This document shows positions 3,292 through 28,516 of a DNA stretch of 64,000 nucleotides, piece by piece. The stretch is taken from contig OZ251539.1 in the NCBI GenBank assembly GCA_965243135.1, positions 3,520,001 to 3,584,000 on the forward strand, in the 5' to 3' direction. The position numbers and the translations under genes were made by a program. Source of the stretch: Alphaproteobacteria bacterium (GTDB lineage: Bacteria > Pseudomonadota > Alphaproteobacteria > MPNO01 > UBA830). The notes under the pieces are model-generated. The model was not told the DNA's origin and ran no database searches. It saw only the letters and a program-made list of their open reading frames with translations. Every line of letters begins with the position of its first letter. Positions within the stretch are counted from its first letter, which is position 1.

Positions 3292-4556
3292 GGCTTCGCT
3301 CCCGAAAGATAGGCGCGCGCGAGAACCTTGCCCTCCTCGACGGCCGGCTGGTCGAACGGGTCCACGCCCAGCAGGCGCGCGGCGACGACGGTCTCCAGCA
3401 TGAAATGCATCATCAGCGCGCCGAGAGCGCGCTCGTCGACGGCCGGGAGGCGGAACGTCCGCACCGGGCGCCCCCTGTTCGCCAGCGCGGCGGCGGTGGC
3501 GCGCGCCTCCGCGTCGAACAGGTCTCCCATGGCGCGTCCCCGCATGTAGGGCACGTCCCCGGCGAGGTCGTCGGCGACCCGCGGGCCGCCGCCGGCGCTG
3601 TCCGGCAGGATCAGCGTGAACATCTTGTCCGCGGGGCCGTCGAGGTAGAGTTGAAGCTGGCTGTGCTGGTCCACGGTTCCCGCGGCGGCGACCGGCGTCG
3701 CGCCGAGGCCGTCCTTTCCGAGGCTCTCCGCCCGGAGCTGGCAGTACCAGCGCGCGAACGGCGCCAGCCGGTCGCAGTAGGGCATCAGGACGGACACGCC
3801 GCGGCCGAGGCCCGCCTCCGCCGCCGCGCCGCAGGCGGGCGGCGGCGCCTCGTCTCCCCGGAGAACGCCGTCGAGCGCGAACGCGGCGCCCTCCCGCGCG
3901 GCGACCGGATCGAGGCCCGCGATCGCCGCCGGGAGCAATCCCGTCACCGACAGCGCGGAGAAGCGCCCGCCGACGCCGGGATCGTGGTCGAGGCGCCGCA
4001 TGCCGAACCTGTCCGCGAGCGCCGCGAGCGGGCTGTCGCCCGGCTGCGTGACGGCGACCATCCGGTCCCCCGGCGCGCCGAGGGCCTTCCGCATCGCGTC
4101 GACGACGAGCGCGGCCTGGGTCATCGTCTCCGCCGTGGATCCGGATTTGGAGACGGCGACGACGCCGGCGCGGTCGAGCGCGACGGAGTCGAGCAGGGCG
4201 GCGAACGCGTGGGGGTCGACGTTCTCCATGAAATGAATCCGCGGACGCTCGCCGGCAGGCTCCGCGAGGGCGCACAGCGTCTTGCCGCCGAGCGACGAGC
4301 CGCCGGTGCCGAGAACGATCACGTCGTCGAATCTCTCGCGGAACTCCGCCGCCGCTTCGGCGATGGCCGGGAGGTCGTCGCGCCGTTCCGGCAGACGCAA
4401 CATCGGCAGAGAGCCGTCCGCGTGGGCAGCGCGAATCCCGTCGAGAGCCGCGGCGGCCTCTTCCAGGCGCTCCCGGTAGACCGGTCGCGCAAGCCCGCCC
4501 TCGCCGATGGATTCGGCGAAGCAGTCCGTCAGGTTCTGGTCGTAAGGCGCCGTCAC
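3288..4556 (-). CDS. pgi: Glucose-6-phosphate isomerase (short type)
   Basis: [47 protein letters not shown]. Confidence 0.93.
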
Positions 4557-7820: not shown

Positions 7821-8320
7821 GGATGCCTCTCCCTGTCGTCGGCCCGTTTCAATTTAGGGTCGCGGCGGCCTCCGATCAAGCCGTCCACGACGATGGCGGC
7901 GACGCCGACCGAAATCGCCGCGTCGGCGGCGTTGAACGCCGGCCAATGATACCCGAAGGCGTGAAAATCGAGGAAGTCGGCGACGGCGCCGTGCACCAGG
8001 CGGTCGACGACGTTGCCGGCCGCGCCGCCGATGACGAGGCCGAGCGCGGCGGCGAGCGGCCGCGAGCCGACGCGCGCGAGCCAGACGGCCAGTCCGGCGC
8101 AGATCGCCGCGGCGACGGCGACGAGCAGATATCGCCCCCAGGCCGGCGCCGATCCGAACAGGCCGAAGCTCGCGCCCGCGTTCCACACCATGACCAAGTT
8201 GAAGAACGGCGCGACCTCGATGACCCGGGGCGGGTTCATCACGCCGTAGACGATCCAGGCCTTCGACGCCTGGTCGAGCGCGGCGGTCGCGGCGGCCACC
8301 GACAGTCCGTAGCGAAGCAA
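7817..8320 (-). CDS. lspA: Lipoprotein signal peptidase II
   Basis: DQASK, VWNAGASFG, GGAAGNVVDR, VADF, WPAFNAADA. TTG start with GAAGG upstream. Confidence 0.93.
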   Translation of the reverse strand: MLRYGLSVAAATAALDQASKAWIVYGVMNPPRVIEVAPFFNLVMVWNAGASFGLFGSAPAWGRYLLVAVAAAICAGLAVWLARVGSRPLAAALGLVIGGAAGNVVDRLVHGAVADFLDFHAFGYHWPAFNAADAAISVGVAAIVVDGLIGGRRDPKLKRADDRERHP

Positions 8321-8331
8321 GGCGCCTTCGC

Positions 8332-9276
8332 CTATCCGGCCGGAGGCGCGCCGCCTTCGAGCGCGGCGCGGGCAGCGGCGCAGTCGCGGGCGATCTGCTC
8401 CCGCAGGCTCTCGACGCCGTCGAACTTCCGTTCGGAACGGATGTAGGCGGCGAAGGCGACCCGCAGCAGCCGGCCGTAGAGGTCGCCGGCGAAATCGAAA
8501 ACGTGGGCCTCGACGTTCACGTCTTCCCCGCCGAAAGTGGGGCGGCGGCCGACGTTCGCGCAGCCCGCGCGCCAGACGGTCGCGCCGTCCTCCTCGACGC
8601 CGGCCCATACGGCGTAGACGCCGAGGGCAGGCTCGATGTATTCGCCGATCGGGAGGTTCGCGGTCGGAAATCCGATCTGCCGGCCGCGCCTGTTTCCTTC
8701 GGCGACGACGCCCTCCACCTCCCAGAGGCGGCCGAGCAGGGAGGCGGCGCCGACGGGGTCGCCGCCTGCCAGGAAGGCGCGAATGCTGGTCGACGAGCAG
8801 GCCGCGCCGCCCGCGTCCTTGACCGGTTCGACGACGGACAACCCGAAGCCGTCCTCCGCGGCCCGGTCCCGCAGGTAGCCGGCGTCGCCCTTGCGGCCGG
8901 CGCCGAACATGAAGTCGTAGCCGACGGCGACGTGCCTGGCGGCGAAGCCGCCGCGGACGAAGACGTCGACGAACCGGCCGTGGCCGATTCGTGCGGTTTC
9001 GCGGTCGAAGCCGACGACGAGGAGGTGGTCCACGCCGAGCGCCCGGAGGCGCCGCGCCTTTCCGTCGAGGGGCGTGAGCTGGAAGGACGGCTCGTCCGGC
9101 CGGAAGAAGCGCCGGGGATGCGGTTCGAACGTGATCACGGCCAGCGGCGCGCCGCGCGCCGCCGCCTCGGAGATCACGGCCTGGTGGCCGAGGTGCACGC
9201 CGTCGAAATTGCCGATGGCGACCGCGGATCCGCGGGCGGCGTCCGGCAGGTCGGCCACGTTTCTGGAAATCCGCAT
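8332..9276 (-). CDS. ribF: Bifunctional riboflavin kinase/FAD synthetase
   Basis: GNFDGVHLGH, TFEPHP, SSTSIR, GRQIGFPTAN, NVGRRPT, EAH. Confidence 0.96.
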   Translation of the reverse strand: MRISRNVADLPDAARGSAVAIGNFDGVHLGHQAVISEAAARGAPLAVITFEPHPRRFFRPDEPSFQLTPLDGKARRLRALGVDHLLVVGFDRETARIGHGRFVDVFVRGGFAARHVAVGYDFMFGAGRKGDAGYLRDRAAEDGFGLSVVEPVKDAGGAACSSTSIRAFLAGGDPVGAASLLGRLWEVEGVVAEGNRRGRQIGFPTANLPIGEYIEPALGVYAVWAGVEEDGATVWRAGCANVGRRPTFGGEDVNVEAHVFDFAGDLYGRLLRVAFAAYIRSERKFDGVESLREQIARDCAAARAALEGGAPPAG

Positions 9277-9329
9277 GGCGGCGGTCTAGTAGTCGGCGGG
9301 GCGGCCCGTGTCAAACCGCCCGCCGGGAA

Positions 9330-9803
9330 TCAGGGTTTTCGGCGGCTCGGCACCCAGAGGGTCGCCACGCCGTCGATGACGACCTTTTCGCCGATGGAGC
9401 AGACGACCTCGCAGGTCGCCCTGTTCGCTTCCGGTTCGACCAGCTTGACCGTCACGCGGGTCTGGACCGTATCCCCGATGCGCACCGGCGCCCGGAAGTT
9501 GAGGTTCTGATTGAGGTAGGCGCAGCCGGGTCCGGGCAGCTGGGTGCCGAGCACGGCGGAGATGTAGCCGCAGGTCAGCATGCCGTGGGCGATGCGGCCC
9601 TTGAACACGGTTCTGCGGGCGAACTCGTCGTTCACGTGAAGCGGGTTGTCGTCCCCCGAGATCTGCGAGTACTGGACGATGTCGGTCTCGGTCACCGTCC
9701 GCACGTAGACCTTCGTCATTCCGGCTTCGAGTTCGTCGATGTAGAAGCCGCGCAATTCGTCGAAGCTGGCGACGACCGCCGCCGGGAGGGTTTGCTGATC
9801 CAT
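9330..9803 (-). CDS. MaoC-family (R)-specific enoyl-CoA hydratase (PhaJ-like)
   Basis: SGDDNPLH hydratase-2 motif, IAHGML, LPGPG..YL.Q.LNF.APV. ATG 9803 with AAGGA RBS. Confidence 0.88.
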   Translation of the reverse strand: MDQQTLPAAVVASFDELRGFYIDELEAGMTKVYVRTVTETDIVQYSQISGDDNPLHVNDEFARRTVFKGRIAHGMLTCGYISAVLGTQLPGPGCAYLNQNLNFRAPVRIGDTVQTRVTVKLVEPEANRATCEVVCSIGEKVVIDGVATLWVPSRRKP

Positions 9804-9998: not shown

Positions 9999-10497
9999 TC
10001 AGCAGCCCCTTCCCCCGGACCGCGTTTCCGCCGCGATTCGCCTCGTCCGTCGGAATCGCGCGACTCGCCCGCGAAACGGATTCGCGCCGCACGCCTCTTC
10101 CGAACACGTCCTTCGGTTCCGTAGCCGCGCTACGCGCCTTCGCGCCGCACCCGACAGCGCCTCCACACGCCGGACGACCTCGCTGCGGTCAAGCGGCAAA
10201 AAGCCGGCACAGGAGTAGCGGAACCGGACAGCGTAAGGCGCGTACTCGACCATTTCGTCGAATAGGGAAGCGCTTTCGTCGCGCCTCCTTAACCGCTCCA
10301 GCAAGCGCACGAGACTGCGGATTGTCGGGTACGTCTCGCCCAGCAACGCGAGCCATGCCTTAAACAACTTTTCGACCGCCTGTTGCGCATGGAAGCCAAA
10401 TATCTGCGAAAGTGTCTGCATCTCCCATGCCGCGCAGGGCGGACAGATCCCTTTCGGCGGCTTCCAGAAGTTCGCGCGCTTGCTTATGGTCGCTCAT
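9999..10497 (-). pseudogene. HEPN toxin of an MNT-HEPN pair, frameshifted near 10405
   Basis: MSDHKQARELLEAAERDL...ADTFAD joins IFGFHAQQAVEKLFKAWL...YAVRFRY in another frame. True 3' end uncertain. Confidence 0.75.
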
Positions 10498-10819
10498 AGA
10501 GCGTCCTTCCTTCCCGCAGCGCGCGAGCGGCGACATGGTTGAGGGAGTCGCGCCAGTACGCCATCTCGTCTTTGCTGTAAACAAGAACGTCGACATCGAT
10601 ATCGAACCCCGCCAACGCCCGGTAGAGGCGCACGGCTTCAGCGCGGCGACACCGGCCGGCACCGAAGGGTTCGGCCTCCACGACGAGCAAATCGACATCG
10701 GACTCCGCCGTCGCGCCGCCCCGCGCCCGCGAGCCGAACAGGATGACCTGCTCCGGATCCGCCTCGTCCACGATAACGCGCACCATCCGGTCGAGCAGCG
10801 CGGCGCCCGCCTGCGTCAC
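10484..10819 (-). CDS. Minimal nucleotidyltransferase (MNT) antitoxin
   Basis: ILFGSRARG...SDVDLLVV motif; overlaps the HEPN gene. Confidence 0.88.
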   Translation of the reverse strand: MTQAGAALLDRMVRVIVDEADPEQVILFGSRARGGATAESDVDLLVVEAEPFGAGRCRRAEAVRLYRALAGFDIDVDVLVYSKDEMAYWRDSLNHVAARALREGRTLYERP

Positions 10820-11432: not shown

Positions 11433-13423
11433 CAGGGCGAATTCAAGAATGGCGCGATCATTGCCAAGCGCCGCCCTTGAGGAGGCGGCCGCGGCGTGAG
11501 ATTCGCGTCGGCGAGACGATGGCGGCGCGAGATCCGCGTCGGCGAGACGATGGCGGCGTGAAGAGACGGCAGCGGTGCTGACAGCGGTGGTGCGAGAGGC
11601 GAGGCTACTGGCGGACGTCAGAAGACCTCCGTGGACAGCTCTCGAACGGCCTGGCGCAGGTCGTAGTGCCGGTGAGCCTGCGGCAGGTAATCGTCCGCGC
11701 AACCGAACGATGGAGATCGCGGCGTTGCGAATCGAAGCCAGTGCACGGGCACTGCCCCCGACGTGGTTGCGGCGGCGGTCCTCGTCGTAAGTCATGTCGC
11801 GAACATGATGCACCCGGTTCTCGATTTCCCAGTGACGGCGAGCAATATCGAGAATCTCGGCAGGTCCTCCGTGCGATGGCGGGACGGAAGTTACTCCGTA
11901 AATGATTTCCGAAGTTGTCCCGACGATCTTTCCCTTTCTGAGTTTCTGGCGTATACGTTCGATGCGGAACGCTTGCCGTCGCCCGGGCAGTTCAACGTAC
12001 CCGTCCCAAGTTTTGTCGAGTTCGACGACCAGACAACTACGAGTGTCGATTCGACCGTGCGTTTTTTCGACCGTCTCGCTTTTACCGACCTCCTGATCGT
12101 TCCAGTCAATCGCTTTCGTCGAGTATCGTCTTCTGATTGCCCTTGACGACCATAAGATAATCGGCTCCCCTGTCCAAGATCAACTGGGTGGTTTCGACCT
12201 GAGTGTGCATGGCGTCAGCGGTCACAATACGTCCAGACAACTGCATGCTCCGTAACAACTTTCGCGCAGCTGGAATCTCGTTTGACTTGTCTGCGACTTT
12301 CACCTGACCGCAAATTAGTCCGGTTTCGTGCTCGACGGCGCCGACCAGATGGCATCCGTCCCCCCGCCGCGACGCTCCGCGCACGGATTTCCCGTCAAGG
12401 ATTCCGTTGGGATCCTGGTATTGCGCGGTCCATTCTCGCAAAGCCTTGTCAAGAGCTTCCGGGTCGACATTTGAAAGCACGCGATGGAAGGTAGCTCGGC
12501 GCCGTGCGGTTTCCATTATCGCTCTGAGCGCACCTCCGCCAGCTGCGGTTGCTTCAACTTTCTGGAGAAGTCCGCTATGGCGGTCACGCTGAACAAACCG
12601 CACAGTTGCGCCGCTATCGCGAGAACCGTTGCCAAAGCGCTGACCGCGACGACTTCGGAAGTCCGGCACCGTACTCAAATACTCGTACAGACTCCCCATT
12701 CTGTGATCCGGTATCTCGTCTACGTTCAATGTCTTGCAGTTCCAGCTCTTGTCGTCGGAAAGCATGCGAAGTTGCTTGCGGGCATCCTTTTCCAGCTCGA
12801 ACATCTTTCTGGACGTTCCGTGTTCGCGGTAACCGCCGCATGCGCTCGTATCCTTTTGTGAACCCAATGGCTTGCCAGTTTGCCGCTTGGTAACACGTTC
12901 CCTCGAAACGGTCCGGATCCACAAAAGTCTCCGCCATCAGGACTGGATGACCGTATGCCGCCTGAAAGTCGTCCGACAGGCGCTGGGTGCTGAGGGACAA
13001 AATATGGGACGCCAGATTGTGTCGCCGCCAAGGCGGAAGAATCAGTAAGCGTGCGTTGTTCGCTACAAGATGCAACCGGCGGCCACGCTGCTCGGGCGTC
13101 CAGCCACCGGTCTCGCGCCCGCAGCCGCCAGGCCCCGGCTTTCCAACCCAGCAACGCTACCCATTCCCCGTTCGGGGCCACGGCGACATGCCGCACCGCC
13201 TCGCCGACCATGCCGCGAAACTCAAGGTAGTGATGCTTCCGCATCGTCTCGTCCCACCGGTCGCGTTCGGCCCGGTCGAGCACCGGCCGAACGGCAATGT
13301 CGTTCGGCCCCCAAATGTTTTTCAGCATCATGGCCGGCACATTGGCGGCAAAAACCGGAAATGTCTAGAAAAAAATTACCCGCCGGTATTTCCGATCATT
13401 CGCCCCCTTCTTGAACGGCCTTT
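11433..13423 (-). mobile_element. Degenerate ISAs1-family element with N-terminal DUF4338 (DruA-like) domain
   Basis: Frameshifted pieces: HHYL..RGMVGE..R.VA...W.ALLGW; NNARLLILP..NLASH.LS; ETFVDP.RFEGTCYQAANW; then ISAs1 motifs DGKS.RG, KSNEIPA, TADAMHTQ, VKGNQ, RD.TYDED. Imperfect end repeats CAGGGCGAATTCAAGAA (11433) / TTCTTGAACGGCCTTT (ends 13423). Confidence 0.8.
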
Positions 13424-13432
13424 ACCTTGCAT

Positions 13433-13445
13433 TATCATTAGGTTA
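13433..13445. repeat. 13-bp direct repeat TATCATTAGGTTA, copy 1 (IHF-site-like)
   Basis: Identical to 17638-17650; one mismatch to WATCAANNNNTTR. Confidence 0.55.
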
Positions 13446-13794
13446 GGCTGAAAGATAAATTCGCCCTGGTTCGGGCGACTGCGCAGCGCCTTTCCGAACC
13501 CATGGCGGACCACGAAAGAAAGAACGTTCGCGGCGTTGGCCCTTGCCTGCCCGCTTGTTTCGCACCTCCGCCGAGCGGCGGAACGGCAGGACGTTCGTGC
13601 TCGCCTCATAGCGCGGCCTTTCACGCCGCAACGACAGCCTGGCCGAGGCACTCCGCGTTCCGGCGGCGGCGGTCACCGCTTCGGACGACGGCGCGCCCGG
13701 AACGACGGGCGGGCGTCGGTCGGAAATTCCGACCGGAGAACGTCCTGGTGGAACAAACCCGGCATCCGGCTATAATCGGCGAACGACGCCTCGC

Positions 13795-14199
13795 GTTGCC
13801 GACTTCGCCGATGCCCATCTCCGCCACTGGGAGGATGCAAAATCGCTCTTCGCCCTTGACCGATGGGCGAATGCGGATCACCTCTACGGCCTCAGCGCGG
13901 AATGCGGCCTGAAGGCGGTGATGCAGGCGCTTGGCATGCAGGTAGACGACGAGGGCAAGCCCACGGAGAAAGAACACCGCGAGCACGTAGACAAGCTATG
14001 GCCCGCATACATAGACTTTGTTAAGCATCGCAACGGTGAGCGATACCTTCTTGATGGCGAACCATTTGATGACTGGTCGATCCACGACCGCTATGCGAAT
14101 CGGAGCCACTTCACGCGACCGAACGTAGCGCCGCATCGCGCTGCAGCTTGCCGGATACGCGATGTAGTCGAACTTGCGACCACTGAAGGCCTGCTATGA
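13795..14199 (+). CDS. Small HEPN-domain protein (start codon non-canonical or damaged)
   Basis: Frame open upstream of the listed ORF: DFADAHLRHWEDAKSLF..RWANADHLYGLSAECGLKA...WSIHDRYANRSH (HEPN N-terminal pattern, Rx5H). TATAAT at 13771. Stop overlaps next ATG. Confidence 0.65.
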   Translation, partial: VADFADAHLRHWEDAKSLFALDRWANADHLYGLSAECGLKAVMQALGMQVDDEGKPTEKEHREHVDKLWPAYIDFVKHRNGERYLLDGEPFDDWSIHDRYANRSHFTRPNVAPHRAAACRIRDVVELATTEGLL

Positions 14200-15503
14200 T
14201 CGACAATCCCGTCTTTTTCGACGACATGCGTCCCCGCGTCGTGGAAGCACTCCGCGAAGCGGAGATACCGGACATCGACATCTATCTGGTGCGCAACCTG
14301 TATGGAATGCTGCGCATATCGGTATCTGAAGAATTTGAAGACAACCAGGCATGCTTGAAAGCCGTGAACCGCCTTGCAGACAAACTGAGCGTCGCTTTAG
14401 GGACGCACGGCCATCCTCCAGGTCGCCGCTCCCTCTTCGTGAGCGATCACCTGCTGAAAGACCTCGCAAAGACCGCGCAGCCGGTCGAAGGCTTCGGCAA
14501 CGTATTCTGGGAGGATCGCCTGATCACCGGCGAAGACTGGTGGACAATAAACGAGCCTTGCGCGAATGGGCGCGCAAAGCGTTGGACGCTATACTCGATC
14601 AAAGGCGGCGTCGGGCGCAGCACCACCACCGCAGTCCTCGCCCGGCATCTGGCTGGCAAGGGCCATCGAGTTCTAGTCGTCGATCTGGACCTGGAATCGC
14701 CAGGACTGTCATCAGCGATGCTCGACCCTTCCGCGCAGCCCAAATACGGCATAGCCGACTGGTTCGTGGAAGAATTGGTCGGGCAAGGCGACCTTCTGAT
14801 CGACGAGTTGACTGCCGAGCCAACCTGGGCGCAAGAACTCGCGGGGGCGGTGGCTGTCGCGCCCGCCCACGGCCGCGAGCCCGGCGAGTATCTGGCCAAG
14901 CTGGGACGCGTCTACATGCAGAGGGCCGACGCCCCCTGGATCGTTCGCCTCGAACGTCTGCTGACGGGTCTGGAGGCTCGTTTCGACCCTGATTTCGTCC
15001 TTATCGAAAGCCGTAGCGGACTGCACGACGTCGCAGCGGCATCCGTCACCGACCTCGGCGCCGACGTTATGCTATTCGCCACCGACTCGGAGAGCTGTTG
15101 GACCGATTACGGAATCCTCTTCGACCATTGGCGAGACCGAAATCTGGCGGCGAAAATCAGGGAACGCCTGTCGATCGTGTCCGCCCTGACGCCCGAACTC
15201 GAAACGGAACGATATTTGCAAGGCTTCAAGCAACGAGCGTGGGGCCTTTTCCGGGATCGGCTTTACGACGGCGTAGCCAACGCCTTCCTGCACGTACCTG
15301 ACGCTTCCGACGGGAATTTTTCGTTCGGCCTGAACGACGAAAGCGCGCCGCACAACCCGATCGCCGTTCACTGGACGCGCGGACTGGCGGCCGGCACCTC
15401 GCTGCGCGACCTGGAGCGGACCGCGGTGCAGCAGGCGCATGCGGAATTTCTACGCCGGTTCGATCGACTCGCCGACTTCGACGACCGTGGATTCGACCGA
15501 TGA
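14196..15503 (+). CDS. ParA/MinD-like ATPase, KGGVGR deviant Walker A, with N-terminal extension
   Basis: YSIKGGVGRSTT, VLVVDLDLESPG, FVLIESRSG. Confidence 0.85.
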   Translation: MIDNPVFFDDMRPRVVEALREAEIPDIDIYLVRNLYGMLRISVSEEFEDNQACLKAVNRLADKLSVALGTHGHPPGRRSLFVSDHLLKDLAKTAQPVEGFGNVFWEDRLITGEDWWTINEPCANGRAKRWTLYSIKGGVGRSTTTAVLARHLAGKGHRVLVVDLDLESPGLSSAMLDPSAQPKYGIADWFVEELVGQGDLLIDELTAEPTWAQELAGAVAVAPAHGREPGEYLAKLGRVYMQRADAPWIVRLERLLTGLEARFDPDFVLIESRSGLHDVAAASVTDLGADVMLFATDSESCWTDYGILFDHWRDRNLAAKIRERLSIVSALTPELETERYLQGFKQRAWGLFRDRLYDGVANAFLHVPDASDGNFSFGLNDESAPHNPIAVHWTRGLAAGTSLRDLERTAVQQAHAEFLRRFDRLADFDDRGFDR

Positions 15504-15726
15504 GCCAGGTCCCTGACGCTTCCGACGGGAATTTTTCGTTCGGCCTGAACGACGAAGGCGCGCCGCACGACCCGATCGCCGTTCACTGGACGCGCGGACT
15601 GGCGGCCGGCACCTCGCTGCGCGACCTGGAGCGGACCGCGATGCGGCAGGCGCATGCGAAATTTCTACGCCGGTTCGATCGACTCGCCGACTCCGACGAC
15701 CGTGGATTCGACCGATGAGCCAGGTC
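15297..15726 (+). repeat. 215-bp tandem duplication (15297-15511 / 15512-15726) creating 72-aa ORF 15500-15718
   Basis: Direct comparison; six substitutions between the copies. Confidence 0.95.
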
Positions 15727-17160
15727 AGCGTCGAGAAGGCCCGCAAGGCGCTCACCGCCCTACCGGAGGGAACGACGCGCGGGGAAATCCCTTCGCTCAA
15801 ACAAGTGTATCTGCCGCAGTCCCACATAAAGGCGATCGACCCGGACGTTCCGCTCGTGGTCGGGATGCGCGGGGCCGGCAAGACCTTCTGGTGGAGCGCG
15901 CTCCAGAATCCCGCTGTGCGCCAACTAGCGAGGCTGTCCGCGAGACGGTCCGGTTTGGCCGAAGACACCGAAGTGCGAACCGGGTTCGGCATCGGCCTCG
16001 CCCCGAACGAGCGCCCGGACAAGGACACGTTGCGGCTGCTGATGGAAAATGACGAACCGAGATCGATTTGGCGAACCGTGCAGGCTCGACACCTCGCGCC
16101 GGACAACCATCCGCTTCGAAAACAGAATACATGGGCGGAGCGCGCAAGATACGTCCGCGACAATCCGGAAGAGATCTCCCAACTGTTCCATCGGCGCGAT
16201 GCCGAGTGCAGCGAGAAGAACGTATATTTCATCATTCTTTTCGACGCATTGGACCAGTGCGCGGACGATTGGACAAACATGTACAGGGCCATTCGCGGCC
16301 TGCTGCAAACCGCTTTGGAGATGCGTTCGTACCGACGGCTTCGGACGAAGGTATTTCTGCGATCCGATCAAATTGACGAAACGAAAATCGGCGACTTTCC
16401 GGACGCGCGGACGATCCTGTCCTCGTCCGTGACATTGAGCTGGCCCCGCAACGAGTTATATGGTTTGTTGTGGCATTCTCTCGCGAACGGAAAAAACGGT
16501 TCCGCGCTCAGAAATTTTCTCTCGAACGGAGATTGGAAAGAATTGCTTCTCGACGGAAATCATTTGTTCGTCGTACCGAGAGACTTGGCGTTCGACGAAG
16601 AGACTCAACGCGAAAAATTCCGCGAACTGGCCGGTCAGCGCATGGGAGAAAGCCGCAGGCTCGGCATCCCTTATTCCTGGATCACGGATCACCTGGCGGA
16701 CGCAGATGGTCGGATAGGTCCCCGCTCGTTCATGGAAGCGTTGCGAAAGGCCGCCGAACACACCACCGAACGACATCCGAAACATCGCCATGCATTGCAT
16801 TACGAAAGCATCAGGCATGGGGCGCTTGCGGCCTCCGCGATACGGATCAACGAACTTCGGGAAGACTATCCGTGGATAGACCAGGTCCTCGCCCCCCTTG
16901 CAGGCATGTCCGTTCCCTTCGAATTCAGAGACGTCGCGCAACGGTGGCGGGAAGAACATCTTCCCGAACGCCTCAAAGCCGCCGACGGGGAGGCGAAACT
17001 GCCGCCCCGCCGCGTCGACGAAGGCGCGAACGGCATTCGCGAGGATCTGGAGCAGCTCGGCATCTTCCAACGCCTGGACGACGATTGGGTCAACGTCACC
17101 GAGGTGTTCAGGGCAGGCTACAGGCTCGGCCGGAAGGGCGGGGTGAAACCAGTTCAATGA
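15715..17160 (+). CDS. P-loop ATPase (Sll1717-like/STAND-related)
   Basis: Walker A GMRGAGKT, Walker B IILFDALD, KVFLRSD, PRSF motif. ATGA-coupled. Confidence 0.8.
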   Translation: MSQVSVEKARKALTALPEGTTRGEIPSLKQVYLPQSHIKAIDPDVPLVVGMRGAGKTFWWSALQNPAVRQLARLSARRSGLAEDTEVRTGFGIGLAPNERPDKDTLRLLMENDEPRSIWRTVQARHLAPDNHPLRKQNTWAERARYVRDNPEEISQLFHRRDAECSEKNVYFIILFDALDQCADDWTNMYRAIRGLLQTALEMRSYRRLRTKVFLRSDQIDETKIGDFPDARTILSSSVTLSWPRNELYGLLWHSLANGKNGSALRNFLSNGDWKELLLDGNHLFVVPRDLAFDEETQREKFRELAGQRMGESRRLGIPYSWITDHLADADGRIGPRSFMEALRKAAEHTTERHPKHRHALHYESIRHGALAASAIRINELREDYPWIDQVLAPLAGMSVPFEFRDVAQRWREEHLPERLKAADGEAKLPPRRVDEGANGIREDLEQLGIFQRLDDDWVNVTEVFRAGYRLGRKGGVKPVQ

Positions 17161-17637
17161 CCTCGGGAAGGATTCTCCGGCTCACAAACGCACCCGAGAA
17201 CTTGATCGACGATCGCCAACCAAGCCGACAAGGATCGCGCCGTCCGCAGGGCTGTATCGTAAATCCGAAAACCGACGCAAGCTCGGTCAGAATTTCCCTG
17301 CCTCTCCGAGCCATTCCTATCCATTCCGTGAGCGTACAAATTTAATTGCGCCATAATCTCCCGTCAACCCATCTTCAGCACTTTTCACTGACGCCATCCC
17401 GTAACACATTGAAAATAAATCAACCAAATTTTTCATCGGTGCTGTATGGCACTACATTTTGTTGCGCTGCCTGTGCGGGCTGGTCCGAACGCCCAAGGCA
17501 TGCACGATAGCGCAGGCGTGGGCATCTAGACGGGCATCTTGGCGGATCACGATTTGGTCCCCATGCCGGGATTGTAGTGCGCCACGCGACTCGAATTATG
17601 GCACTACAAAGAAGGTTTCAGGCTCGACATTCAATAA

Positions 17638-17650
17638 TATCATTAGGTTA
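17638..17650. repeat. 13-bp direct repeat TATCATTAGGTTA, copy 2, near ATGGCACTACA repeats
   Basis: Identical to 13433-13445. ATGGCACTACA at ~17446 and ~17598, with an inverted imperfect copy at ~17572. Confidence 0.55.
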
Positions 17651-18208
17651 TGGCAGACAAATTGGCCGAAAAGGCCCTAATTCAACCGGAAAGTGCTGAA
17701 GATGGGTCAAGTTCGAGGCGCAAAGAATCCCGGATGATCCCACGTTAATTTTGCGTTGCATTTCCGGGTTTCTTCGTTGGTTCCCTCCGGCTTTCGCGAG
17801 CCGCTTCGGTTATTCCCGAGCCATGGCTTCGAACGGGCACTTGGGCATGGAGGCTTCTTCCGCTGCGGGAGTCCGCCTCGCTCGACCGGACGAGCGGAAC
17901 GCTCCCGTTCGACGGAACCATTGCCTGGAGTTCGGGCGTTTCGCCGCTTGCGGCGCATGTCGTCGCTCGCGTCGTCCGGCGCCTGCAGGCCCGGCGCGCG
18001 CCACGCGCCGAAAGTTCGGGACGCAAGCCCGGACGCCCCACAGGATTTTCGCGGAGCAACAGGCCCGCTCGCCCCCGCGCCGAGGCAAAGAGGGAGGCGG
18101 TTGAGGGAAACGTTCATCGCCAAGCGCTGTCCGCGAGGAGGAGCGGCAGCGGCCTTTCGCGGAAGCGGCTGTCGAAATGTCCGAACGGGACGTCGAACTC
18201 GCCCGGCT

Positions 18209-19729
18209 TCAGGCGGCCTCGCAATCGAAGCCGACGACGTTGCGCTCCTCGCGGCTGAACTCCACCCCGATCAGGTGGACCGAACGACCGAGATGGCGGT
18301 ACTTGTCCGCATAGCCCTTCTCCCGCAGTTGCGCGAGCGCGGTTCCCTCCCGTCCGCGCTCCACCACCTTGAACTCGAACAGGTAGACGCGCCCGCCGGC
18401 GCGGACCGCCATGTCGGCGCGCCCCCGGCTGCCGCTGTCCTCGGCCACCGGCTCGAGGCCCTCCATCAGGAAGCAACTGGACGCTCGCGTAGTGGGCCTC
18501 GTACTTCGCGACGGGGCTGGTCGCGTACCATTGGTGCGGGATGGCGGCGAAGACGCCGCGGAACAGGGTCTCGATGCGCTCGAAGTCGTTCGCCTCCAGC
18601 AATTCGCCCAGCCGCAAGTTATCCGCCTTCTCGCGGGCATGACGCGGGAGCAGCTCTTCCAACAGGGCTTCGCCCAGGCTCCGGCGCACCTCGAGGTTCG
18701 GGTAGCCCAGCCTGTAGCGCCCGTCCTCCTCGCCCGCGATGGTGAGGTAGCCGGTTTGGAACAGAAGCGCCTCCACCGAGATCCTGTCCACGTCGACGGA
18801 CGAAAGCAGGCTTTCGCTGCCGGTCATGCCGTCCAAGTCGGGAGTGGGCAGGTCGCGGCGCGCCAGCGTCTCGACCAGAAAGGTCGGCGTGCCGCTCTGG
18901 AACCAGTACGGGCGGAACTCGCGCCGTCGAAACAGCAGCAGGAGGCCGAACGGGTTGTAGACCCTCTCCGGCCCGCGCCAGTTGTAGCCGTTGTACCAGC
19001 GCCGGATCTCGTCCCGGTCCAAGCCCTCGAGTTCAGGGGCGAAGACCGCGTCCAGCTCGTCGTCCGTGCAGCCGCAGATGTCCGAGAACTCAGGCTCCAG
19101 CGTGATGTCGATCAGGTTGTTCAGGCCAGAGAACAGGCCCGCATGCGAGAACTTGCTCACCCCCGTCAGGAAAACGAAACGGAGATGCCTGTCGCTGTCC
19201 TTGATCATCGCGTAGAAGCCGCGCAGGAAGTCGCGGTTGGCCGCCGCCAGCTCCCGGTCGCCGAGCGCGTCCAGAATCGGCTTGTTCGTCCACCAGCACG
19301 ACCGCCCGCTGCCCGGCGCGCTCGTGCAGCGCCCTTATCAGGCGCCGGAAACGGACCGCCGCCTCGGCGGGGCCCGGTTCGAGGCCGGCCAGCCGTTCCG
19401 TCTCCTCCAGCTGGTCTTCCACGTTTCTCCGAACGAGGTCCGGGGAGTCGAAATTGCCCCCGCCGAAGCTGATCCGCACGACGGCGCGTCGACCAGTCCC
19501 ACTTGCCGTGCACGGCGAGGCCCCGGAACAGCTCCTCGCTTCCCTCGAACAACTCCTGCAGCGTGTCCACCAGCAAGGTCTTGCCGAACCGGCGCGGACG
19601 CGACAGGAAATAGTAATCGCCCCCTTCGACGAGGCGGCGCACATGGTCCGTCTTGTCGACGTAGTAGCAGTCCCTCGTCCGGATTTTCCGGAGGGAGGTC
19701 ATGCCGGTCGGCAGCATGCGCTTCGTCAT
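18209..19729 (-). pseudogene. AAA-ATPase-like + PD-(D/E)XK nuclease protein, frameshifted
   Basis: YYVDKT, LSRPRRFGKTL, LVDE, FVFLTGVSKF, YNGY, YWF.SGTP, GRADM...FEFK...AL.Q...KGYA across three frames. Confidence 0.88.
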
Positions 19730-19831
19730 CCAAAAAGAGTAGGCAGCCGCGCCGGAGCCGTCAAGGAGGCGGCGGTCGCAAGCAGGGCGAATCCAGGAAC
19801 GGGGCGGTCGTTGCCAAGCGCTGCCCGCGAG

Positions 19832-19929
19832 GCGGCAGCAGTGCGGGAAGCGGCAGCAGTGCGGGAAGCGGCAGCAGTGCGGAAAGCGGCAGCAGTGCGG
19901 AAAGCGGCAGCAGTGCGGAAAGCGGCAGC
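19832..19929 (+). repeat. 18-bp tandem repeat GCGGCAGCAGTGCGG(G/A)AA x5.4
   Basis: Read directly; no spacers. Confidence 0.95.
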
Positions 19930-19942
19930 GTCGGGAGGCCAA

Positions 19943-20056: not shown

Positions 20057-20557
20057 TCAAGACGGCCTCAGGCACCAAGATCGTATCCGTTTGCGGATCT
20101 CCGACTTCGGCAACCGGCATCTCGGATGCGCGGCGATCGCTCGGAGGCCCGCGCAGAGCTTGTCTCCGTCCTCCTCGCCATCCTCGAACATCCGGTCTAT
20201 CAGCCACAGAACGCCGTGGCATGCGACCTTTTGCTCCGCAGCCAATTTACGCAACTCACCGTCGCCGGACAACAACGTCCAGGATCTGGTTTTTGCGAGG
20301 GCAAGAGCGAAGCTGTCCGGCAACGAAAGTGCCCGTCGTCTCCGTCGGTAGTCCAGCGCAAGCGCAACCTCGCCGCCGTCCAGCTCTTCCACACGGAGCC
20401 CGAGTTTGGTCAGGGTAGAATCGCCACGGTCCTTGAGTTCCCGTCGATACAGCAAATCCGGCACGGCGAATTCGAACGGAAGGCGGAAAGCGGTCTCCAG
20501 CAGCGATCCGCGTTCGAGATCGATTAAAACCGAAGTGTCGGAAACCAGCATCGTCAC
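20057..20557 (-). CDS. PIN-domain protein
   Basis: LVSDTSVLIDL, ELK, LSLPDSFALALA, LLSGD..LR. Confidence 0.85.
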   Translation of the reverse strand: MTMLVSDTSVLIDLERGSLLETAFRLPFEFAVPDLLYRRELKDRGDSTLTKLGLRVEELDGGEVALALDYRRRRRALSLPDSFALALAKTRSWTLLSGDGELRKLAAEQKVACHGVLWLIDRMFEDGEEDGDKLCAGLRAIAAHPRCRLPKSEIRKRIRSWCLRPS

Positions 20558-20586
20558 GATGTTCCTACCCGGCCGAGGATAGATTT

Positions 20587-21654
20587 CTACCGGGGAGGTT
20601 CCTGCATCCGGCGGCTCAACTCGTGAACCGAACTTCCCAGGAGTTCGGCCGCCTTGGCCTCCGAGATCGCGCCTTCCGCGAGAGCGCGGAAGCACAGGCG
20701 CTCGAAACGCTTGGGCTTCTCGCCCTTCATGGCGTGGGGCTCCCGATACGGCGGACTGCGCCAGCCACGACGCGAGAACTCGTCGAACAACTGCCGGAAC
20801 AACGTTTCACTGAAAATGCCAAGCTCCCTGCAACGATAGGCGAGAGCTTGCACGCTCACGCCGAAAATTCGTTTCAAGTCGAAGAGTTCATCCCAGACCA
20901 CGGACTTGCGACGTCTACCGATCTCCGCTCGAAGCGTCTCCGCCGGCATGAGGAACGCCCCGGCAAATCGGTGCGCTGCCTTCTCGGCGTCGACCTTCGG
21001 GGCAACATCCATGATCATGTGGCCGAGCTCATGCGCAATCGTAAAGCGCTGCCGCTCGCCCCAGTGCTCTTGCTCTTGGTTCACGACAATGACGGATGCT
21101 GCGCTTCCGTCTTCACGGCGGACCCTGGCCGTCAGGCCGTCGACACCGGTGAGGTCCACAGAGATGACCTTGATGCCGCGCACTTCCGACAAGTCGACCA
21201 GATTGGCTATCGGATTGAGACCTACCCTCCAGTGAACGCGAAGCCCTTGGGCGGCGAGCTCCGCCTCGGCCGGATCGCGCAGTACAGGCCAGGGCGCCTC
21301 TCGCGGCCGATCCCAAGCGACGCTGGGCAGACGGAGAAGTTCCTCGACCGTAAGATACCGTTCCAGCAGGTGCAGCACTCTGGCCTCGATTCGGGCTTCC
21401 TCGCGTTTGCTCGTAGGCTTCTTCCTACGGAACTCGACAGCCTCCAAAACTATGTCCTGATCGCCGACCAGATAGTCCACGGTCACGTCGAGCGCGTCGG
21501 CAAGCGCGATAAGAACCCCGGAACTCGGCATTGCCTCGTCGCGCTCGTACTTGCTGATCGCCTGCGCCGTCACGCGGTTGTCGATTCTGGCCTCCAGATC
21601 CCTCAACGACAATCCTGCGGCTGATCTCAAGACATTAAGCCGTTGACCTATCAT
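20587..21654 (-). CDS. XRE HTH-ImmA/IrrE zinc metallopeptidase
   Basis: N-terminal HTH (ISKYE), RQRFTIAHELGH (HEXXH), AHRFAGAFLMP. Confidence 0.92.
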   Translation of the reverse strand: MIGQRLNVLRSAAGLSLRDLEARIDNRVTAQAISKYERDEAMPSSGVLIALADALDVTVDYLVGDQDIVLEAVEFRRKKPTSKREEARIEARVLHLLERYLTVEELLRLPSVAWDRPREAPWPVLRDPAEAELAAQGLRVHWRVGLNPIANLVDLSEVRGIKVISVDLTGVDGLTARVRREDGSAASVIVVNQEQEHWGERQRFTIAHELGHMIMDVAPKVDAEKAAHRFAGAFLMPAETLRAEIGRRRKSVVWDELFDLKRIFGVSVQALAYRCRELGIFSETLFRQLFDEFSRRGWRSPPYREPHAMKGEKPKRFERLCFRALAEGAISEAKAAELLGSSVHELSRRMQEPPR

Positions 21655-22457: not shown

Positions 22458-22976
22458 TCAGGCGCATACTTCCCTGAAGCTACGGAGTTTCAGGCGGAAC
22501 CGGTGATGGGATGACCAATCATCCTTGATGCTATCCGCCTCCGCAATATCGAGTAACCCTTCTTTGATCATGGAAGCCATGAGATCCTGTGTTGTAAGGA
22601 GACGGAGTGCTTGATCGGTACGCCGTGCTTGCGCCATGGCTTGGCGATCATCAATAGCCAATACATACTGCCGATGTACGGCCACGGCGATGGCAGAGCA
22701 TTCACCGGCTCCCAGGCGGCCGGACGCTGACAAAGATCCGAAGAGAGACATCTCCCCGGGATTGGCAATGCTTACTTGCGAAACGGCGCTCTCGTCGATT
22801 GTCTCGGAGAACCGTTTCTGCTGCTCTGGATATTGATCGGATATTTCGGCGGCGACATGATCCGTAGCGACGAAATCGTGAGAGTGGCGAGCAACGAGAT
22901 CCATCCGGTCAATGCGGAGGAAATTCACCAAGACTGACGTATCTGCCACGATAATTGCGGGTTTGCCTTCTACCAC
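22458..22976 (-). CDS. PIN-domain protein
   Basis: IVADTSVLVNF, EI, LGAGECSAIA.A, LAIDD..A. Confidence 0.85.
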   Translation of the reverse strand: MVEGKPAIIVADTSVLVNFLRIDRMDLVARHSHDFVATDHVAAEISDQYPEQQKRFSETIDESAVSQVSIANPGEMSLFGSLSASGRLGAGECSAIAVAVHRQYVLAIDDRQAMAQARRTDQALRLLTTQDLMASMIKEGLLDIAEADSIKDDWSSHHRFRLKLRSFREVCA

Positions 22977-22984
22977 AACACAGA

Positions 22985-24247
22985 TTATTCCCCACGAGCA
23001 ATTTTGGCTAAATCAAGCAGAGTGCGGCCGCGCATATTCAGCGTCTTGTTCAATTCGAGAACGCGGCCGCGAGAAATCTCCTTGCGGCGATAGGCCTCGA
23101 TGGCGAGATGAGCTATCTCTCTTCGGAGTTCGCGGTCCCAACGATGGCGCCGCTCAGGTTTCCCCACTTCGCCGAACATGTCGAGAGCCTTCAGATACTT
23201 GCGCCCGGCGTTTTCCTGTTCCCTGAGCTCCTGGCATTCTGGATGGGAGATGCACCGAAGGCTTTTCGACCGGTACAAGGCCGCTTGGTAGCTCACGCCG
23301 AAATGGTGCGCCAGCATGGCGATATCCTTGTAGGCGATGCGTTGAGAATGCGCCGGCGAGCGAAGCTCGGTTTCAATACGGCCACCGGTGGCGACATCGA
23401 AGACGGTCTGCCCCTGACGGCTCGCACGGCCTTTGTCCAAGCTCTGCAACGCTTCGTAGACCCCATTTCTCGGCATGAGGAAAGCGGCGGCAAACGCGTT
23501 CGCGCGCCGCTCTACCATTTCGGATGCGTTGTCGGCGCTGGAAACCGCAATGTTACGATTCCGATCGAGCAGGGTATGAGCATATTCATGGGCATAGGAG
23601 AAACGCTTGCGGCCCCTCGGATGAAGCGAATTGACGAGGATCGCCAGTCCAAGGCTCGAATGCCGCAGGAACAGACCCGACATCCAGTCCGGAAGTTCGA
23701 CACCCGATGCCCAGATGTCTTGGGACGCAATCAGTTTGCAGATATCGGCAATCGGTGCGTTGCCGACGCCGAGTCGGCGCCGCTCCTGTTCCGCGGTCCG
23801 CTCGCCTTGGGCCACGGCTTCTCCTATGGTGCGCGGCATCCGCGTCTCGTAGCTTGGCGGACCGGGGCGAGGTTCGGCGCCGAGCAGACGCTTCAGCCTC
23901 ACGCCTTCACGGCAAAGGCCGATACAGCGAGCGACCTGTTCGCGCGTCAATGAATTCCGTTCCAGCCTGGGCGCAGCGCGGCACAGCGCCACCAGCATGT
24001 CCTCGTCCTCGTTCTGAGCGCCTTCCTGCAGGAACTTAGCGACCGGGTGGAGGTAGAGCTCGGCAAGCCTCGTCAGTTCAAGCGTCGACACCGAGCGATT
24101 GCCCGCCTCCAACTGAGTGATCGCGGTTCGCGGCAGGCTCAGCGCATCGGCCACCGCCTGTTGACTGAGGCCCCTCGCCTCGCGTTTCGTGCGCAATCTG
24201 CGTCCGAGCTCCTCCGCCTCCATCGTCTGATCTCTCCTCTGCTGCAT
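22985..24247 (-). CDS. XRE HTH-ImmA/IrrE zinc metallopeptidase
   Basis: HTH LSQQAVADAL..PRTAITQLEAG, RKRFSYAHEYAH, ERRANAFAAAFLMP. TTGACA-17-CAAAAT promoter at 24299-24271. Confidence 0.92.
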   Translation of the reverse strand: MQQRRDQTMEAEELGRRLRTKREARGLSQQAVADALSLPRTAITQLEAGNRSVSTLELTRLAELYLHPVAKFLQEGAQNEDEDMLVALCRAAPRLERNSLTREQVARCIGLCREGVRLKRLLGAEPRPGPPSYETRMPRTIGEAVAQGERTAEQERRRLGVGNAPIADICKLIASQDIWASGVELPDWMSGLFLRHSSLGLAILVNSLHPRGRKRFSYAHEYAHTLLDRNRNIAVSSADNASEMVERRANAFAAAFLMPRNGVYEALQSLDKGRASRQGQTVFDVATGGRIETELRSPAHSQRIAYKDIAMLAHHFGVSYQAALYRSKSLRCISHPECQELREQENAGRKYLKALDMFGEVGKPERRHRWDRELRREIAHLAIEAYRRKEISRGRVLELNKTLNMRGRTLLDLAKIARGE

Positions 24248-26826: not shown

Positions 26827-26937
26827 TCACCACTGACTGGGCGTATCCGGTTTCCTTCCCGGCGCAGCTCCGCCTCGACGACGCGGAGATTCGATCATTT
26901 CAGGCGTCGGCAAAATCAGCAGCGGACGTTCCGCCAT
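26827..26937 (-). pseudogene. Possible 5' remnant of S8 protease partner (IetS-like)
   Basis: MAERPLLILPTPE..PRRRGG overlaps the ATPase 3' end as in ATPase-S8 operons; stops after 36 codons. Confidence 0.4.
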
Positions 26938-27919
26938 CGGCCTTCACCTGATGCTTCACGGTTCCGGCGCGCGCGGTCCAGATCGCAAGTTGATCCGACA
27001 CGATCGACTTCAGCGGCTTGCCGCCCATGGCAAGGGCATGGCAGCGTGCGATGTCGAGACAGAATTGCTCGACTTCGGCATAGCTTATCCTGCCGAGCTT
27101 TCTCGCAAGAACCATAGCCGAATGGCCCAGCGAGTCGTCGAACCGTTCCGCAAACGCCTCGATATAGTCCGCGACCGCCTTTTGCGTCGGCATAGGCAGC
27201 GACAGGCGAAGCTGGAAGCGGCGCCATGACGCCCGGTCCAGAAGTTCCGGATGGTTCGTCGCGCCGATAATGATCGTATAGCTCGGCAGATCGTCGAACT
27301 GCATGAGAAGCGAAGTGACGACGCGCTTGATTTCGCCGGTCTCGTGGCGGTCGCCCCGCTCCTTTCCGATCGCGTCGAACTCGTCGAAGAACAGAACGCA
27401 GGGCGTGGTGCGCGCATAGTCGAACACCCGCTTCAGACGCGCGGCTGTCTCTCCAAGATAGCTCCCGATCATCGCCTCGTAGCGCACTACGAGCAGCGGA
27501 ACGGCGATCGCCTCGGCGATTGCTTCGGCCAAGCTGGTCTTTCCCGTTCCCGGCGGCCCCGCGAGGAGAACGCGATGCCGCGGCTCCAGGCCGTACGCCC
27601 GCAACACGTCGGCCCGAATTTGTTCCTGAATTAATTGCGCGACAGCATTGTTCAGGGAGCCGGGCAGGATCAGGTCGTCGAGTCGGCGCCTCGGAACGAC
27701 CTCGGATACGAAATCGCGGCTTCCGGTGCGGGAGGCAGCGGCGGCCGGGGAGAGGTTGCCCCCGTTCAATCGCAGCACCCGGGTCAAACGCTCAGCCAGC
27801 ACGTTATGTTGTTTCGTGCGTTCTTCCGCGATGATCGCTTCCGCAGCGGCGCGCGCAGCGGCCTTGTCTCCCGACGTTCCGGCCTTCACCAAGGCTATCA
27901 ACAGATCGCTACGGGCCAT
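26900..27919 (-). CDS. AAA+ ATPase, SpoVK/Ycf46/Vps4 family (IetA-like)
   Basis: MARSDLLI.LV.AG, GPPGTGKT, SYLGETA, FFDEFDA, GEIKRVV, ATNHPELLDRA.WRRF. Confidence 0.9.
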   Translation of the reverse strand: MARSDLLIALVKAGTSGDKAAARAAAEAIIAEERTKQHNVLAERLTRVLRLNGGNLSPAAAASRTGSRDFVSEVVPRRRLDDLILPGSLNNAVAQLIQEQIRADVLRAYGLEPRHRVLLAGPPGTGKTSLAEAIAEAIAVPLLVVRYEAMIGSYLGETAARLKRVFDYARTTPCVLFFDEFDAIGKERGDRHETGEIKRVVTSLLMQFDDLPSYTIIIGATNHPELLDRASWRRFQLRLSLPMPTQKAVADYIEAFAERFDDSLGHSAMVLARKLGRISYAEVEQFCLDIARCHALAMGGKPLKSIVSDQLAIWTARAGTVKHQVKADGGTSAADFADA

Positions 27920-28372: not shown

Positions 28373-28516
28373 AGCGACAGGCTACAGGAAGACCAGCCTC
28401 AATGTCTGAGCGAGCTGCTTCTCCCCGCTGACACCCAAATTATGACCTTGCCTCCCGGCGCCGTGCGCATGCCGGCTATTCGGGTTATGATCGCACGTAG
28501 CGAAAGCCGTTCGACC

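Follow-up and report, generated by a model that had tools for sequence, protein, structure and literature searches.

Candidate defence systems of the PDC class are gene sets embedded in BREX, DISARM or type I restriction-modification loci ('guilt-by-embedding'), and they entered PADLOC without individual tests (Payne et al., bioRxiv 10.1101/2024.01.29.577857). A separate in silico study describes HINPO, a system centred on a ParA-type protein of the ConB2 clade that has arginine in place of the Walker A lysine, a PG motif after sensor-1, and a fused N-terminal domain characterized as a rapidly evolving, inactive Pol-beta-type nucleotidyltransferase ('iNTase'); a gene for a new HEPN family, PA-HEPN1, lies upstream, and a gene for an ORC-CDC6/STAND AAA+ protein lies downstream (Li, Burroughs, Aravind, bioRxiv 10.64898/2026.10.19.760177, 22 Oct 2026). 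In the model proposed for HINPO, the ORC-like protein senses selfish-element DNA and guides multimerization of the ParA-type protein, which is the primary actor; the HEPN protein is a backup effector, and the dead nucleotidyltransferase may sense nucleotides (bioRxiv 10.64898/2026.10.19.760177). The 64,000-nucleotide stretch of an alphaproteobacterial genome considered here (contig OZ251539.1, positions 3,520,001 to 3,584,000; hereafter the window) carries three adjacent genes, A, B and C, that correspond to both descriptions. They probably represent a horizontally acquired copy of HINPO/PDC-M28 that lies in a defence-type island, has a silent effector gene and is decaying.

Genes A, B and C are co-directional on the + strand and fill positions 13786-17160 of the window: A at 13786-14199 (137 codons, with a TGA stop at 14197-14199), B at 14196-15503 (435 amino acids) and C at 15715-17160 (481 amino acids). 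These open reading frame (ORF) calls bear out the gene positions given in an earlier note on this DNA, which read the trio as a candidate defence system, and the lower G+C content described there is also found (0.56-0.66 in 500-nt windows over 13500-17499 versus 0.71-0.73 in core genes at 8000-9499). In PADLOC, profiles PDC-M28A, PDC-M28B and PDC-M28C match the three products nearly end to end, at 9.5e-48, 1.6e-129 and 1.8e-159, respectively; with all three profiles matched in adjacent genes, the trio is, by its sequence, the PADLOC candidate PDC-M28. The trio also fits the published description of HINPO in gene order: a HEPN gene, then a ParA gene with the arginine Walker A, the PG motif and an N-terminal domain, then an ORC/Cdc6-STAND AAA+ gene. 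The earlier note had not recognized the trio as a characterized system; it does match a described one, catalogued in PADLOC and described in silico as HINPO. The equation of PDC-M28 with HINPO is drawn here from the profile matches and the text description of HINPO, and the accessible text of the HINPO preprint mentions neither PADLOC nor PDC. No literature naming PDC-M28 was found, full-text searches for KGGVGR and Sll1717 returned no relevant paper, and one preprint that tests other PDC candidates does not include M28.

The association of the three genes is conserved. A search of species-representative genomes gave 138 relatives of C, the best 80 of which define the locus set used here; C in these loci is 50-59% identical to C of the window. 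The lineages include Acidobacteriota, Spirochaetia, Gamma- and Alphaproteobacteria, Binatia, Entotheonella, Longimicrobiales, Latescibacterota, Dehalococcoidia and others, mostly as uncultured genome bins from many phyla. In 57 of the 80 loci, all three genes are full length and directly follow one another as A>B>C, so the neighbourhood seen in the window recurs elsewhere; five loci have full B and C without a detectable A, and the remainder are fragmentary or cut by contig ends.

Protein A has the four-helix up-down fold of HEPN proteins, as judged from an AlphaFold2 model built on an alignment of 81 sequences (predicted local distance difference test score, pLDDT, 92.9). When this model is compared with solved structures by VIA-align, the closest matches include 1ufb (Z 13.0), the HEPN domain of sacsin (12.8), 2hsb (12.6), 1wol (11.8) and 4nqf (11.0); all top matches extend over 108-118 residues, and the top six rows are all HEPN entries. 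Lower rows contain Csm6, AbiV, LsoA and HEPN toxins (8xdj, 5yep and 7ae2 at Z 7.4-8.9). Rows 1-9 of a Foldseek search are likewise all HEPN, with weak E-values of 0.05-0.5. The HEPN identity that the earlier note had proposed from sequence patterns is thus upheld by the structure search. By sequence, Pfam gives nothing above cut-off for A (only HEPN_AbiV at a sub-threshold E of 0.091), and a search of the PDB gives no useful match.

Relatives of A number 611 in a 90%-clustered collection and are typically 137-141 amino acids long; at 50% clustering there are 1035 representatives at E 0.001 or better. Eight residues stand out among 124 diverse relatives: R13 (conserved in 119), H14 (112), E39 (124), K43 (123), H67 (122), R102 (118), Y103 (118) and H117 (105). 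Five of these, E39/K43/H67/R102/Y103, parallel at similar spacing the invariant E40/K44/H58/R91/Y92 of an alignment of the classical HEPN family PF05168, which was built from another gene of the window. The Rx5H motif that had been taken as the HEPN signature of A does occur in the window copy (R102-x5-H108), yet H108, at +6 from R102, is present in only 18 of the 124 diverse relatives and 47 of the 81 close ones; this conservation pattern rules the motif out as a catalytic signature of A. Since most relatives lack the motif, RNase activity would be attributed to A from its predicted fold and not from a conserved motif.

The feature that sets the window copy apart is the start codon of A. The frame of A is open from 13612 (the preceding stop is at 13609-13611) to its TGA; between that stop and a GTG at 13918 it contains no ATG, GTG or TTG, and the TTG at 13796 is out of frame by one base, in agreement with the earlier note. 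At the family start position, 13786-13788, the window has ACG (Thr), and counted from there A is 137 amino acids long and not about 134 as first estimated. The nearest relative (P0005, 94% identical and also 137 amino acids) begins MPRVADF where the window reads T-P-R-V-A-D-F. Of 81 aligned relatives, 77 have methionine in this column, ATG, GTG or TTG is found at or near the expected start in 59 of 60 related loci, and ACG is the start in none of the 60. Across 43 conserved columns, M1T is the only deviation of A.

The ACG is a real, derived allele, arising by T>C at 13787. Public contigs from runs X2, X4, X5 and X6 were aligned to the region. The main contig of X2, a second sample (study P1), has C at 13787 and no differences from the window over 13439-17395, and X4 (study P2) also has C and no differences, which rules out an assembly error as the source of the ACG. 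In X5 (study P3; depth 3.2/3.2), in X6 (study P4; depth 15.3/15.3) and in a minor divergent contig of X2 (depth 3.0/35.2), the base is T. Initiation at the next in-frame start, GTG 13918, would delete helices 1 and 2 plus R13, E39 and K43, so a full-length A product from the window allele is unlikely. The HEPN gene is very probably silenced or barely translated here, much as the earlier note had supposed. A TATAAT hexamer at 13771-13776 on the + strand, read from the sequence, lies 9 nt 5' of the start position of A. That it could be the -10 box of a nearly leaderless message is a guess: GATAAT or CATAAT precedes the ATG of A by 6 nt in three loci from alphaproteobacteria (L051, L086 and L089), and in the window a consensus promoter scan did not call the hexamer and found no acceptable -35.

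Protein B is a ParA-type NTPase of the lysine-to-arginine KGGVGR clade; its NTPase core is preceded by an additional domain and followed by a conserved tail. Residues 127-313 match NCBIfam NF047398, 'KGGVGR-motif variant AAA ATPase', at 4.9e-49, and the Pfam matches (CbiA, AAA_31, ParA and MipZ) are confined to the P-loop region. The Walker A motif, KGGVGRST at residues 136-143 (14601-14624, +), has R141 in place of the P-loop lysine, as had been noticed when B was first read as a ParA/MinD ATPase. Among 58 sequences, G137, G138, G140, R141 and T143 never vary, and K136 is kept in at least 90%, as are P169 and G170 of the motif DLDLESPG; ESRSGLHD is conserved too. DLDLE is equated here with sensor-1 from the wording of the HINPO preprint and not from structure. 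The N-terminal domain, residues 1-125, evolves faster than any other part of the operon (mean pairwise distance 0.57), and the corresponding domain of HINPO is likewise described as rapidly evolving (bioRxiv 10.64898/2026.10.19.760177).

Protein C is, on its modelled structure, a member of the ORC/Cdc6-STAND class of AAA+ ATPases, and the earlier description of it as STAND-related is in line with this fold. C matches NCBIfam NF047389, 'P-loop ATPase, Sll1717 family', at 4.2e-21, and has a Walker A motif, G50-MRGAGKT57 (15862-15885), and a Walker B motif, D177-A-L-D180. Pfam gives weak AAA_16 and NPHP3_N matches and nothing above cut-off, none of its repeat families is found across the 481 amino acids, and a sequence search of the PDB gives no useful match. 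In the model (pLDDT 90.6) the C-terminal part is helical or winged-helix-like and the core resembles CED-4 and ORC; Foldseek matches the model to BrxC (1.3e-05), archaeal and eukaryotic ORC/Cdc6 (from 6e-05), CED-4 (2e-03) and RdrA (4e-03).

C of the window has drifted. Of 173 columns with at least 90% conservation, it deviates at 16, compared with a median of 4; among 53 other proteins, only 5 reach that number. B has 5 deviations at its conserved columns against a median of 4. Twelve of the 16 deviations in C are absent from its four nearest relatives, and the replacements include S232R, K233T, R316L, C402F, R458W and G470R. In a FastTree phylogeny the end branch of C is 0.6, compared with a median of 0.23. 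This pattern in the sequence points to relaxed constraint on C.

The junction of B and C is interrupted by a tandem duplication of 2 x 215 nt at 15297-15726 (+), detected in a repeat search and by TRF (period 215, 2.0 copies, 97% matches). Each copy (15297-15511 and 15512-15726) spans the final 68 codons of B, the ATGA junction and codons 1-4 of C; the copies differ at six positions, all of them transitions and all non-synonymous. The duplication has created a 72-amino acid ORF at 15500-15718 (+), the translation of which reads MSQV and then repeats B residues 368-435. This ORF overlaps both neighbours by ATGA (at 15500 with B and at 15715 with C) and matches positions 373-434 of the PDC-M28B profile at E 1.3e-06. 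The linkage of the three genes by ATGA overlaps, as proposed in the earlier note, therefore holds for A and B, which overlap at 14196-14199, and does not hold for a direct joining of B to C, between which the 215-nt duplication intervenes. None of the 80 related loci has a tandem duplication between B and C. The junction is bridged in contigs of two further studies, X6 record 28 (15481-15599, 1 difference) and X5 record 21 (15297-15541, 5 differences), so the duplication predates the divergence of the sampled strains.

The distribution of the trio is scattered. The genome of the window (6.10 Mb, one contig) has one copy; 25 other genomes of the same family, including four of the same genus, have no match, and the full trio is present in three genomes of the same order. 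C is found at E 1e-30 or better in 20 of 300 other genomes drawn as an even sample of the phylum. In a 90%-clustered collection C has 1133 relatives, the best of them 77% identical. A FastTree phylogeny of 54 C proteins intermixes phyla, with Pseudomonadota requiring at least three changes on starred branches, and places C of the window weakly (88) beside a gammaproteobacterial clade, apart from its same-order relatives. Relatives of C occur on 24 plasmids, and none was found in 50,697 phage records. Complete PDC-M28 trios are carried by plasmids pSurvcare220 of Enterobacter bugandensis and pTM2 of Tistrella mobilis, where they are annotated 'hypothetical / AAA family ATPase / hypothetical'; the trio of pTM2 occupies 545144-548323 of NC_017966.1. 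In four genomes (G098, G086, G094 and G238) C-like matches lie within open frames of 1337-1803 amino acids that are probably fusions with other parts of the system, and fusions of this kind are mentioned for HINPO (Li, Burroughs, Aravind, bioRxiv 10.64898/2026.10.19.760177). One alphaproteobacterial locus, L089, has a second, partial copy of A and B (2720-4187) directly upstream of a complete trio.

Divergence along the locus is uneven. Compared with the X6 strain, the window has 119 differences over 13470-14344, 77 over 14450-15384 and 29 over 15829-17367, corresponding to divergence of about 14% in A, about 8% in most of B and about 2% in C; the best database relatives, in turn, are 94% identical for A and 77% for C. 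The locus is thus a mosaic, which suggests recombination between alleles of the system.

The trio lies in a variable island: core genes (mutL, M16 peptidases, lspA, ribF) break off near 9971 and resume at about 34700. With IetA, RmrA-like, PDC-S70-like, PIN and MNT-HEPN genes in this interval, the island is of a defence type, which supports the reading in the earlier note. At the island edge is a canonical minimal nucleotidyltransferase (MNT)-HEPN pair on the - strand (9999-10819). Its nucleotidyltransferase ORF (10484-10819) has matches to NTP_transf_2 (2.1e-10) and Polbeta, and its HEPN ORF (9999-10421) to PF05168 (4.2e-10); the latter is missing helix 1 of its relatives, carries a long arginine-rich tail and may be damaged. 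Insertion-sequence debris on the - strand (12106-13340; DDE_Tnp_1 1.7e-10, DruA/DUF4338-type 1.1e-11) lies outside the system and consists of overlapping broken frames ending some 350-450 nt upstream of A; in contigs of related strains, similarity to the window begins only at about 13439-13470. Downstream of C, all on the - strand, are an AAA-ATPase_like (PF09820) gene (18114-19942) that is split over two frames and is probably a pseudogene, a PIN-domain ORF (20057-20695), two RmrA-like genes, each with helix-turn-helix and M78 peptidase parts, matched by PADLOC (20587-21654, 1e-52; 22985-24247, 1.4e-25), a PDC-S70-like ORF (22458-22976; PADLOC 1.4e-11) and an IetA gene (26900-27919; 4.2e-142). 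An 18-nt tandem repeat (19832-19929, 5.4 copies, 98% matches) adjoins the AAA-ATPase_like gene. No IetS lies beside IetA; the genome has a single, weak IetS-like match (1.2e-30, one internal TGA), 2.5 Mb away. Several ORFs of 438-554 amino acids on both strands of 28244-34331, without Pfam or PADLOC matches, may be island cargo. There is no tRNA gene in the window, so no obvious integration site.

In other genomes, the nearest large ORF on each side of the trio was scanned for 47 of the 80 loci (94 of 157 ORFs), the other 33 loci being left out. PADLOC profiles match 13 of the 94 ORFs, in 12 of the 47 loci, at 1e-10 or better. DISARM DrmMI directly adjoins the trio in L026 and L051, and in L041 IetS (4.4e-257) and DISARM DrmA (3.7e-278) flank the trio; HEC-03B, HEC-01A, DarG and PDC-M68A are matched elsewhere. 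The DISARM neighbours in these three loci fit the origin of a PADLOC candidate embedded in DISARM.

A role of HINPO/PDC-M28 in immunity is plausible from this context and from the two independent in silico studies. In a working copy, by the model proposed for HINPO, C would sense invader DNA or another infection cue and drive nucleotide-dependent assembly or switching of B, and A would be a toxic effector, acting by RNA cleavage or RNA binding, that imposes dormancy or death if the first line fails. The dual-NTPase-gated RNase suggested in the earlier note is a reasonable candidate model; the HINPO preprint instead gives the ParA-type protein the leading part. In the window, the change of the A start from ATG to ACG, with no other in-frame start giving the full domain, would most likely leave the effector unmade or made in traces, while C collects replacements at conserved sites and the duplication splits the B/C junction. 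Taken together, the ACG start, the replacements in C and the split junction argue for an effector-silent system under relaxed constraint. Several points weigh on the other side. No experimental test of PDC-M28 or HINPO was found in the literature, so that 'defence' rests on context, and the count of 13 in 94 flanking ORFs has no matched control and is suggestive only. For A, the family does not conserve the canonical Rx4-6H RNase motif ahead of the last helix, and an hhalign comparison with the classical HEPN family PF05168 is not significant (probability 1.3%, E 0.041). For B, none of 58 members matches a Pfam nucleotidyltransferase family, and the N-terminal domain has no match in the PDB by sequence. 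As to decay, B and C have no stops or frameshifts, which agrees with the earlier note's view that both ATPase genes are intact, and the deviation count of B is normal; the duplication, found in runs of two other studies as well, is no recent damage and could be tolerated or even of use. In bacteria, ACG can allow traces of initiation.

The last point is the starting point for a reading in which the system is fully functional here, with ACG initiation or translational coupling yielding A in the small amounts appropriate to a toxic effector. The frame of A is otherwise intact, with M1T as its sole deviation, and the ACG allele is present in runs of two studies; even so, this is improbable, given the absence of ACG starts from the 60 related loci and the prevalence of methionine and cognate starts at this position among the relatives. 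ACG is among the weakest bacterial initiators, and if the transcript were near-leaderless, a cognate start would presumably matter even more. Somewhat better placed, though still unlikely, is the possibility that what remains is a working core without an effector, in which B and C intercept invader DNA, the HEPN protein is a dispensable backup that has been switched off, and the 72-amino acid ORF may regulate. The core of HINPO is indeed described as ParA plus sensor with HEPN as backup (bioRxiv 10.64898/2026.10.19.760177), the five loci with full B and C and no detected A have no A-like ORF upstream of B, both genes are intact in the window, and two further studies have runs that retain the duplication junction. 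Against it, replacements in C are three to four times the usual number, R316L, K233T, C402F, R458W and G470R among them, and the absence of A from the five loci may reflect the limited reach of tblastn. By comparison, an ordinary partition or positioning role for B, as a ParA/MinD ATPase with unrelated neighbours, is hardly credible. The CbiA, ParA and MipZ matches over the P-loop region are what such a protein would show, but the partition and MinD equivalog models score only 19-30 bits against cut-offs of 180-508, the P-loop lysine is arginine, and no ParB family is found among 67 selected ORFs (at least 110 amino acids) scanned in window positions 1-41180, in accord with the absence of a nearby parB stated in the earlier note. 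A housekeeping partition function was rejected on these scores, the lack of ParB in the scanned ORFs and the conservation of the trio in 57 of 80 loci.

A further reading concerns origin: A and the N-terminal domain of B would derive from a HEPN-MNT toxin-antitoxin pair, with the nucleotidyltransferase, now dead, still holding the HEPN protein and the two NTPases controlling its release; the operon would then act primarily as an addiction or abortive-infection toxin module. We regard this as doubtful, although its chances are slightly better than those of the effector-less core, and the same tentative standing applies to its bolder form, in which a captured HEPN-MNT pair had its dead nucleotidyltransferase welded to a ParA switch, that dead domain clamping the HEPN toxin and the ORC-like ATPase setting the moment at which ParA releases it. 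The best folds for A are small stand-alone HEPN proteins and the HEPN domain of sacsin (1ufb, 3o10, 2hsb, 1wol and 1o3u), entries that we take to belong to the MNT-associated classical HEPN family; the five residues that parallel PF05168 and the ATGA overlap of A and B point the same way. The HINPO preprint assigns the N-terminal domain of B, as an inactive form, to the Pol-beta nucleotidyltransferase superfamily, but calls this version distinct from minimal nucleotidyltransferases; its accessible text draws no MNT-HEPN link, and 'MNT' is absent from the main text (bioRxiv 10.64898/2026.10.19.760177). The profile comparison of A with PF05168 is not significant, as given above, and the evolutionary distances of A correlate no better with those of the N-terminal domain of B (rho 0.51) than with those of the ParA core (0.56) or the N-terminal half of C (0.53). 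If such a capture did occur, the window would show its afterlife, with the toxin turned off by one start-codon transition and two NTPases drifting, while several strains retain the duplicated tail of B as a small ORF of its own.

The reading preferred here, a horizontally acquired, effector-silent and decaying copy of HINPO/PDC-M28, concerns a trio that was already catalogued in PADLOC and described in silico; what is new is the link between the two, the set of conserved residues, the plasmid-borne copies and a natural effector-off allele with a junction duplication. The family is large and widely transferred, is included in defence-prediction databases and has a detailed in silico model. A natural allele in which the effector is off and the NTPases are kept bears on whether HEPN is part of the core or a backup, and the cultured plasmid-borne copies named above could be tested. 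For the genome itself, the trio is an ordinary decaying gene set of an island.

Among systems of known or proposed function, HepT-MntA (type VII toxin-antitoxin) resembles the trio in having a small stand-alone HEPN protein beside what is reported to be a Pol-beta-type nucleotidyltransferase domain. It differs in that the nucleotidyltransferase of the trio is reported to be inactive and fused to ParA and a third, AAA+ gene is obligatory; the family of A does not conserve Rx4-6H, no sequence-level link is found and B matches no nucleotidyltransferase profile. The MNT-HEPN pair of the window itself, 3 kb from the trio, is unrelated to it in sequence. ParA-HeH with a HEPN anticodon nuclease, cited as shown in Salmonella, shares with the trio a ParA-type NTPase, a HEPN effector and an anti-phage context, but its ParA belongs to the ConB1 clade, in which the lysine is kept, its sensor is HeH and not ORC/Cdc6, and its HEPN protein is of another family (bioRxiv 10.64898/2026.10.19.760177). 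C has an AAA+ core with helical, winged-helix-like C-terminal parts like those of Avs, BrxC (BREX) and RdrA (RADAR); unlike these, it has no repeat sensor domain or fused effector, and TM-scores of 0.3-0.4 indicate the general class only. With ParABS and MinD, B shares the SIMIBI fold, the DxD and Walker B regions, and K136 as the signature lysine of the deviant Walker A; it is set apart by the arginine at the P-loop lysine, the lack of ParB among the scanned ORFs, the extra N- and C-terminal domains and the sub-cut-off equivalog scores.

The two closest comparisons remain PDC-M28 and HINPO. All three proteins match the PDC-M28 profiles over nearly their whole length; whereas the PDC class is described from BREX, DISARM and type I restriction-modification loci, the trio of the window is not embedded in any of these, and DISARM genes flank 3 of the 47 other loci. 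PA-HEPN1 of HINPO corresponds to A as the upstream gene for a small HEPN-fold protein (Z 11.0-13.0 for A), a correspondence taken from the text description. The emphasis of the preprint is on multicellular bacteria, in which HINPO is reported to be enriched (bioRxiv 10.64898/2026.10.19.760177), whereas the 80 loci collected here are mostly from uncultured bins of many phyla. Relative to HINPO as described, the copy in the window is distinguished by the ACG start of its HEPN gene, the 215-nt duplication between B and C, and the many replacements in C.

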